DNA from: a virus
Lineage: Duplodnaviria > Heunggongvirae > Uroviricota > Caudoviricetes
Reading direction: 5' to 3' (one strand)
Length of the DNA: 51,529 nt
IMG/VR virus record: IMGVR_UViG_2617270963_000008
Position numbers: made by a program. Position 1 is the first letter of the stretch; every line of letters starts with the position of its first letter. Of the stretch, positions 1 to 3,000 are shown in pieces.

Positions 1-3000
1 CGCACGGGCACTGCGTTTATCCGGATGATGTCGCTGTTGCTGACAGTGGTAATACGTTGACGGGGCAATATGTAGTTCACTGCATACCGGTCCGACCCCG
101 TACAGCTTACGCAGCTTATCCAGCAGTGGCATCACTTTTTCCAGAGGCGGTCGAACTCCGCCTTCGCAAAATAAGCGGAAGCCTGGCGAAGGATATCGTT
201 ACTGCGGCGCAGTTCACGATTTTCACGTTCCAGCTCTTTCAGACGCTGACGTTCAGCGGTGGTGAGCCCTCCATCACCGCCCCCGGTATCCCGCTCATGC
301 TGGCGAACCCAGACACGCAGAGTCTCCGGCGTACAGCCAATCTTTGGAGCAATGGAACAAATTGTCGCCCATTGTGAGTCATATTCGCTCTGACTTTCCA
401 GAACCATACGGACTGCCCGTTGACGGACTTCGGGGGAAAAACGAGTATTTTTAGTCATCCTGTTTACCTCTTTCTCAGGAAGTTTAGTCTCCAGGATTCC
501 CGGGGCGGTTCACAACAAAGCTAAGGTTAGTAATTAAGGAGTTCTCCACGGGTGAGGTGGAGTGCGTGCGCCGGACACGGGTGCGCATCCGGAACTGACA
601 GTTTACTGAAAGGATATTTCCCTGAAAAGTCAGACCATAACGCGAAAGCGCACGGCGAGGTAGCTGGTTCATAGATAGCCTGTCGTTAAATTTTCGTCGA
701 CCGTGCGCTTCCGGTTGTGGCAACCCGCGAAATGGCGCGGCGGTAAGTATGGCGGGGTTATTCCTTCCCCGTTGAGGACACCGGGTTGTCAGGTTGACCA
801 TACGCTTAAGTGACAACCCCGCTGCAACGCCCTCTGTTATCAATTTTCTGGTGACGTTTGGCGGTATCAGTTTTACTCCGTGACTGCTCTGCCGCCCTTT
901 TTAAAGTGAATTTTGTGATGTGGTGAATGCGGCTGAGCGCACGCGGAACAGTTAAAACCAAAAACAGTGTTATGGGTGGATTCTCTGTATCCGGCGTTAA
1001 TTGTTAACTGGTTAACGTCACCTGGAGGCACCAGGCACTGCATCACAAAATTCATTGTTGAGGACGCGATAATGAAAACGTTATTACCAAACGTTAATAC
1101 GTCTGAAGGTTGTTTTGAAATTGGTGTCACTATCAGTAACCCAGTATTTACTGAAGATGCCATTAACAAGAGAAAACAAGAACGGGAGCTATTAAATAAA
1201 ATATGCATTGTTTCAATGCTGGCTCGTTTACGTCTGATGCCAAAAGGATGTGCACAATGAATTCAGCATTTGTGCTTGTTCTGACAGTTTTTCTTGTTTC
1301 CGGAGAGCCAGTTGATATTGCAGTCAGTGTTCACAGGACAATGCAGGAGTGTATGACTGCAGCAACCGAACAGAAAATTCCCGGTAACTGTTACCCGGTC
1401 GATAAAGTTATTCACCAGGATAATATCGAAATCCCGGCAGGTCTTTAAAACAGTTCCGTAATAAATATCCGGTTTCATTCTTATATGCCAGCAATGGCAG
1501 GGATTTGTTCATCCTTAAATCTGTCATGAGGTTAAAACAAATGAGTAAAGTCTTTATTTGCGCCGCTATTCCTGACGAACTGGCAACAAGGGAAGAAGGC
1601 GCTGTGGCTGTAGCCACAGCCATTGAAGCTGGCGACGAACGCCGTGCTCGAGCAAAATTTCACTGGCAATTCCTGGAACATTATCCGGCTGCTCAGGACT
1701 GCGCTTATAAATTTATTGTCTGCGAGGATAAACCTGGCATACCCCGCCCTGCCCTCGATTCATGGGATGCTGAATATATGCAGGAAAACCGCTGGGATGA
1801 GGAGTCTGCTTCTTTTGTCCCGGTTGAGACTGAATCCGATCCGATGAACGTCACTTTTGACAAGCTGGCCCCTGAAGTACAGAACGCTGTCATGGTTAAG
1901 TTCGACACATGTGAAAACATCACCGTTGATATGGTTATTAGCGCACAGGAATTGTTGCAGGAAGACATGGCAACATTCGACGGACATATCGTTGAAGCGT
2001 TGATGAAAATGCCAGAAGTTAACGCCATGTATCCGGAGCTTAAGTTGCACGCCATTGGGTGGGTTAAGCATAAATGTATTCCTGGTGCTAAATGGCCCGA
2101 AATTCAGGCAGAGATGCGCATCTGGAAAAAACGTCGCGAAGGTGAACGCAAGGAAACCGGAAAATACACGTCTGTTGTTGATCTCGCCCGCGCCAGAGCC
2201 AATCAACAGTACACTGAAAATTCAACAGGAAAAATCAGCCCGGTCATTGCTGCCATTCATCGCGAATACAAGCAGACATGGAAAACACTGGATGACGAAC
2301 TGGCCTACGCTCTCTGGCCTGGTGATGTGGATGCCGGAAACATTGACGGCAGCATCCATCGCTGGGCAAAAAAAGAAGTTATCGACAACGACCGCGAAGA
2401 CTGGAAGCGTATCTCGGCATCAATGCGCAAACAGCCTGATGCCCTTCGCTACGACCGCCAAACTATTTTTGGCCTTGTCCGTGAGCGTCCGATCGACATT
2501 CACAAAGATCCCGTAGCACTGAACAAATATATCTGCGAATACCTGACGACAAAGGGCGTGTTTGAGAATGAAGAAACAGACCTGGACACTGTTGATGTTC
2601 TCCAGTCATCAGAAACACAAACTGATGCAGTGGAAACTGAGGTATCTGATATCCCAAAAAATGAAACCGCGCCGGAAGCTGAACCATCTGTAGAGCGTGA
2701 GGGGCCGTTCTATTTCCTCTTCGCAGATAAGGACGGAGAAAAATACGGTCGCGCAAACAAACTCTCTGGTCTGGATAAGGCACTGGCTGCTGGCGCCACT
2801 GAAATCACAAAAGAAGAATATTTTGCCCGAAAAAATGGCACATACACGGGCTTACCGCAAAATGTAGATACCGCTGAAGATTCAGAACAACCAGAGCCGA
2901 TAAAAGTTACCGCTGACGAAGTAAACAAAATTATGCAGGCAGCCAATATCAGCCAGCCTGACGCCGATAAGTTGCTTGCTGCATCACGTGGTGAATTTGT

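Follow-up and report, generated by a model that had tools for sequence, protein, structure and literature searches.

The small RNA DicF and the proteins DicB and YdfD are toxic upon induction. DicB blocks phages which use ManXYZ, and DicF regulates cell division and metabolism, and in enterohaemorrhagic E. coli also virulence. The locus presented here raises the question of what becomes of these three genes when an insertion sequence (IS) stands directly upstream of them. The window, i.e., the whole analysed stretch of 51,529 nucleotides, begins inside such an element. A preliminary description had proposed that an IS629 occupies the place of ydfABC and the DicA-controlled promoter, that the module is cut off from its upstream region, and that it is either silenced or placed under new control.

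The dicF-dicB-ydfD module and the left arm of the prophage

All three members of the module were recognized, and their Qin order was confirmed by the RF00039, PF05358, and PF07358 matches (Table 1). The matches were full-length in each case. DicF covers model positions 1-52 of 52 at 846-897 (gathering score 48), DicB covers residues 1-62 of 62 with 136.8 bits against a gathering score of 27, and YdfD was matched with 91.1 bits against 25. The dicF sequence is 100% identical to that of K-12 and lies in the ydfC 3'UTR, upstream of dicB, in the early-left operon of a lambdoid prophage. The dicB gene starts 174 nt downstream of dicF and overlaps ydfD by 4 nt (1257-1260), as in K-12. The leftward early operon to which these genes belong continues with a gene for a YdfE-type exonuclease, followed by excisionase and integrase. 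The genes after the integrase, rspB, rspA, and ynfA, are those that border the Qin prophage in the K-12 chromosome. This Qin-like left arm (1541-5651) is less decayed than in K-12, the exonuclease, excisionase, and integrase genes all being intact.

Two features of native K-12 sequence were noted on the minus strand. One is a 56-aa ORF at 873-1043, which the source assembly lists as a gene. The other is a promoter-like site, TTAACA-16-GAGAAT, at 1007-980, located between dicF and dicB and directed antisense toward dicF. Probably neither of them represents a real gene.

Table 1. Features of the window; positions are counted from its first nucleotide.
Feature	Position	Strand	Evidence and remarks
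IRL-proximal 512 bp of an IS629/IS1203-family (IS3 family) element	1..512	-	ALIL, HTH_Tnp_1, terminal repeat; contig ends inside
ALIL -1 frameshift pseudoknot	177-61	-	Rfam, 116 bits
orfA with HTH_Tnp_1 domain	458-132	-	7.4e-13
IS terminal inverted repeat	~488-512	-	reads ...CCCGGGGCGGTTCA up to 512
ydfC 3'UTR / dicF leader, complete except first 8 nt	513..845	+	identical to K-12 except 653 C/T
Long imperfect hairpin in leader (predicted)	635..720	+	fold of 628-730: -37.4 kcal/mol, z = -1.98; also in fold of 513-905
dicF small RNA, terminator hairpin and following T-run	846..898	+	Rfam RF00039, 76.7 bits, E 2.9e-15
dicB, 62 aa, cell-division inhibitor	1072..1260	+	PF05358, 1.9e-40; nucleotide-identical to K-12
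ydfD, 63 aa, DUF1482, lysis protein	1257..1448	+	PF07358, 3.9e-26; nucleotide-identical to K-12
YdfE-type 3'-5' exonuclease, full-length, 823 aa	1541..4012	+	Rv2179c-like domain, 2.4e-67; YdfE_N and YdfE_C families
Excisionase	4085-4336	+	DUF1233, 1.6e-31
Integrase of Qin-like prophage	4371-5651	+	Arm-DNA-bind_2 and Phage_integrase domains
AntA antirepressor, second prophage	16344-17105		
Giant 2783-aa LPD5/LPD38-domain protein, second prophage	20619-28970	-	
P22-like portal, second prophage	44617-46761	-	
Rz/Rz1, second prophage	50528-51043	-	
Second copy of the same IS	51083..51529	+	447/447 nt identical to reverse complement of 66-512; ALIL, 100 bits; Rz and Rz1 immediately left

The insertion element and the retained leader

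The element at the left end was assigned to the IS629/IS1203 family by its terminal repeat (TGAACCGCCCCGGG...), the HTH domain of orfA, and the ALIL frameshift signal. The name IS629 is equivalent to IS1203v (PMC9330008). The IS end in the window is 96% identical to full 1310-bp copies from complete genomes, which carry the RefSeq label "IS3-like element IS1203 family", and 100% identical to copies in many E. coli genomes. The window holds only 512 bp of the element, and the DDE orfB, the IRR, and the 3-bp target duplication were seen only in comparator copies. The element faces dicF with its IRL, and its transposase gene points the other way.

Between the end of the IS at 512 and dicF there are 333 nt, in agreement with the 330 bp given in the preliminary description, and all of them are leader sequence. 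No part of the 341 nt preceding dicF is translated in K-12 or in the Qin-like prophage of strain H15, and in both of them position 513 corresponds to the ninth base past the ydfC stop codon. Since the IS abuts a point 8 nt past this codon, it is not sitting on ydfABC or on the promoter, and that part of the earlier description had to be given up. What stands is that the IS separates the module from the place where the promoter dicBp lies in K-12 and H15. Alignment of 513-844 with the ydfC-dicF region of K-12 revealed one differing base, at 653 (C vs. T), which is also the only difference from K-12 DH10B throughout 513-2307. At 2308 the two sequences part, the exonuclease gene of K-12 being truncated there by IS2.

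The long imperfect hairpin predicted in the leader is, judging from its fold, a likely substrate of RNase III. A DicF species of 190 nt is known as an RNase III product (PMC10448788). From the published lengths (PMC10448788) we infer that this species would begin at approximately 709-714, in the 3' arm of the hairpin at 635-720. The leader also contains a Shine-Dalgarno-like AAGGAG (536-541), followed by a putative GTG-initiated ORF of 40 aa (552-674); only position 653 differs here from K-12.

The source contig and the distribution of the junction

The window represents an entire draft contig, JHDN01000034.1 (GCA_000601155.1), and both of its ends stop inside identical IS copies, which is the usual signature of breaks in short-read assemblies at repeats. 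The two terminal copies are inverted relative to each other with both IRL ends pointing inward, and the 50.5-kb segment between them could be a substrate for inversion by recombination. The right-hand copy is located inside the endolysin gene of a second prophage, which it breaks just upstream of Rz. This second prophage extends over ~16000-51082 and was apparently inserted in ynfG, as seen from comparison with strain 23CRST047. Its holin, Q, and early region would lie past the contig end.

No homology to dicC, dicA, or ydfABC was detected anywhere in the window, and dicF was present as a single copy. A relocation of ydfABC and dicA within the window by inversion was considered and rejected, as the window lacks this homology. 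Likewise, dicBp with its DicA operators and ydfABC was not contiguous with the leader within the window, where the IS abuts it at 512/513. The statement that the module is cut off holds in the sense that it is physically split from the dicBp position. It is also in part a data artefact, because the contig ends inside the IS and ydfABC and dicA may adjoin beyond it. This break reflects the draft state of the assembly and carries no biological meaning in itself.

Three draft assemblies at NCBI and one metagenome scaffold at ENA share the 512/513 junction base for base; JHDM01000038.1 and JHDL01000038.1 are the contigs that carry it in the two sister assemblies. Searches of 5,426 complete E. coli genomes, the GTDB species representatives, and the JGI metagenomes recovered neither the exact junction nor any longer contig with it. 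The predicted left junction, i.e., the ydfC 3' end joined to the IRR with 0-6 nt between, was not found in the JGI metagenomes. Only the juxtaposition of IS and leader is specific to this small clade, in which the junction is inherited.

Origin of the junction

IS629-family copies within ~1 kb upstream of the dicF leader occurred in 29 of the 5,426 complete genomes, a total which includes clonal groups; 12 genomes had the orientation seen in the window and 17 the opposite one, the latter copies having been found with a synthetic query. A rough expectation, calculated from ~1 IS copy per Mb and up to ~12,000 dicF-region loci, is that roughly ten would occur by chance. The idea of an IS hot spot was rejected, since the observed frequency is close to this rough estimate for uniform IS density, and selection for orientation was rejected on the 12 vs. 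17 distribution.

Of ten comparator insertions examined, eight were simple: each is flanked by a perfect 3-bp target duplication, and past the IS its immunity region is undamaged. The duplicated bases were AAC in HCM-22C-2, CCA in ML775 (O103), GAC in both 550 and MS 119-7, GTC in PE164, ATA in O103:H2 12009, ATT in MB46, and AAA in KE47. The remaining two, E300082 and CEC13002, were rearrangements. By analogy with this set, a simple insertion in the present clade, with CAA as the expected duplication, appears quite likely, and a rearrangement or an adjacent deletion rather unlikely. The ancestral site is uninterrupted in H15, where it reads ...CGCGTTAG TAGCTAAT/CAACAAAGC, the target being GCTAAT/CAA/CAAAGC. 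A simple insertion would predict the far-side junction ...GTTAGTAGCTAATCAA then TGAACCGCCCCGGGTTTCC. With a CAA duplication and intact ydfABC and dicA, the contig end across the IS is predicted to read ...ACCCGCGTTAGTAGCTAATCAA then TGAACCGCCCCGGGTTTCCTGGAGAG.

The main alternative is that the IS was left behind by a deletion or rearrangement which it mediated itself, through an adjacent deletion of the IEE type or through recombination of one IS copy with another. In that event dicC, dicA, dicBp, and ydfABC would no longer adjoin dicF-dicB-ydfD, and the module would be a true orphan. We regard this as unlikely. IS629 together with IEE is known to generate large adjacent deletions which leave the IS intact (PMC9330008), and the lack of dicC, dicA, and ydfABC sequence in the window would be accounted for in this way. 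The two identical inverted copies which bound the window offer a substrate for inversion. There are precedents as well: CEC13002 has an IS upstream of ydfC without a target duplication, and in E300082 an IS lies between a truncated paaK and a truncated ydfC, adjoining a module 99.9% identical to ours. However, eight of the ten comparators were simple insertions, and the junction in the window falls in the spacer with the leader intact and a flank ~100% identical to uninterrupted strains, which fits a recent single insertion.

In E300082 the IS occupies positions 1703-3012 of the locus, and its otherwise unrelated flanks share four bases, AGGG; by its sequence, this rearrangement truly orphans dicF-dicB-ydfD. 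Strain 23CRST047 (locus 9790-12013), the nearest chromosomal relative among the complete genomes, lost dicA through dicB together with the 5' part of the exonuclease gene by another deletion, an event which also counts as a precedent for loss in this region, and carries an IS66 element in the integrase gene. As this deletion is a different one, the dicBF region seems to be eroding by several independent routes.

Promoters and the question of new control

In K-12 no promoter was found for the operon besides dicBp, which lies upstream of ydfA and is repressed by DicA (PMC10448788). It is the sole documented source of DicF and DicB according to Ragunathan et al., and older literature agrees (PMC5069750, PMC9438474). 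An old report, as cited in PMC10448788, suggested that a promoter precedes dicB, but the 2023 study did not find one. Experiments on K-12 revealed no promoter in the sequence which makes up the retained leader, so uncoupling of the module from DicA control can be soundly inferred.

Candidate promoters were scored in a position-weight scan with dicBp as the positive control. The control (TTGACC-17-TAATCT) scored 12.0, a value which was reached by no background position. Plus-strand candidates between the IS and dicF scored 7.2 or less, corresponding to approximately the top 0.3% of positions, which is the chance level for this length. A weak outward promoter-like site directed toward dicF was present in the IS end (TTTACC-16-TAGTCT, 463-490) with a score of 7.2. 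Between dicF and dicB, in native K-12 sequence, the promoter-like site GTGACT-16-TAAAGT (880-907) scored 9.0, and some dicBp-independent expression of DicB and YdfD may occur. A consensus promoter scan returned no plus-strand site, a negative result of little weight because the same scan also misses the genuine dicBp in a comparator.

These scores bear on the second half of the earlier proposal, silencing or new control. Silencing remains reasonable; new control finds no sequence support, with scores of 7.2 at most against 12.0 for dicBp. It would mean that the IS provides an outward or hybrid promoter, or read-through, and that dicF and dicB are expressed independently of DicA, resulting in constitutive low-level phage exclusion or in altered division. 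We regard this as very improbable. The site at 463-490, the only one that came out of the check for an IS-borne or hybrid promoter reading into dicF, faces the right way but scores at chance level. The end facing dicF is the IRL, which in the IS3 family holds the transposase promoter, directed inward; the outward -35 element belongs to the IRR. Both orientations occur among the analogous insertions, which gives no sign of orientation-dependent promoter selection, and constitutive DicF or DicB is toxic (PMC5069750). Since published work on K-12 detected no promoter beyond dicBp, silencing is much likelier than new control.

A further speculation, to which we assign equally little credence, is that the IS acts as a reversible dicF/dicB switch through precise excision by IEE in STEC-like backgrounds, or that 463-490 drives a low DicA-independent expression; either would alter phage exclusion and division control in the clade. 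Finally, although a short-read draft contig which ends in repeats could suggest a chimeric contig end, an assembly artefact at the IS/leader junction is effectively refuted by the identical junction in the three NCBI assemblies and the ENA scaffold, with ~50 to 510 bp of the IS read across.

Proposed effect of the insertion

The explanation we consider probable, with appreciable room for doubt, is a simple polar IS insertion 8 nt past the ydfC stop codon which separates the module from dicBp and silences it. In the proposed course of events, a 1310-bp element of the IS629/IS1203 family would have inserted into a Qin-type prophage at this point with its transposase pointing away from dicF, most likely in a simple transposition event that duplicated the three target bases CAA. 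This event would have spared the dicF leader, the predicted region of RNase III/RNase E processing, dicF, dicB, ydfD, exonuclease, xis, and int, and the module sequences would be intact because the insertion is recent. The DicA-repressed dicBp, upstream of ydfA, would be split from dicF-dicB-ydfD by the IS. A dicBp transcript would then reach dicF only after 1.3 kb of antisense IS RNA, untranslated and rich in C, with Rho-dependent polarity as the predicted outcome, and expression downstream would be strongly decreased or abolished.

The polarity is judged from base composition. The antisense IS RNA contains 391 C vs. 314 G and no long ORF, and it has 23 windows of 78 nt with a C/G ratio of at least 1.3, compared with 2 on the sense strand. 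Being untranslated and C-rich, such RNA favours Rho-dependent termination. The module would accordingly be a recently silenced, undecayed copy on which DicA, Rem, and stress induction no longer act. The exonuclease and xis genes further along the operon are expected to be silent or strongly reduced as well.

A strain whose module had lost its link to DicA, Rem, and stress would be without those inducible responses, and in a prophage with no other damage the block would extend to the leftward early operon (exonuclease, xis). The locus can serve as a strain-level case linking genotype to phenotype, where IS629-family elements inactivate prophage operons, a well-described phenomenon which involves no new mechanism. 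It is a genuine but unremarkable insertion, probably polar, of an IS into a known operon, a strain-level polymorphism whose parts are all already known and nearly identical to their equivalents in K-12 or the IS629 family.

Comparison with known dicBF operons

The eight simple comparators resemble the window in that the same IS family interrupts the same interval between dicBp and dicF. They differ in the sites, which are found before ydfA, in ydfB, in ydfC, and in other variants of the spacer, and in showing both orientations, and none of them has the junction of the window. The rearranged E300082 (NZ_CM128602.1) is similar in its Qin allele (99.9% identity) and in that a member of the IS629 family directly precedes the dicF leader. 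Its IS, in contrast, has the opposite orientation, lies inside ydfC, and is joined to a distant chromosomal gene.

The dicBF operon of the K-12 Qin prophage (ydfABC-dicF-dicB-ydfDE) has the same gene order and the same attachment side near rspB, and dicF, dicB, ydfD, and the 333-nt leader are nucleotide-identical except for one base. Unlike K-12, the window has an IS 8 nt past the position of the ydfC stop and no visible dicA, dicC, or ydfABC, while its exonuclease, xis, and int are intact, without the IS2 truncation seen in K-12. The Qin-like prophage of H15 (NZ_CP010178.1) is ~100% identical over window positions 513-5700 (~5.2 kb) and shares the full exonuclease, xis, and int. It has no IS, and a Cro-like gene, a CI-like repressor gene, ydfA, ydfB, and ydfC are contiguous with the leader, a layout which, from the sequence comparison, is likely the arrangement that preceded the insertion.
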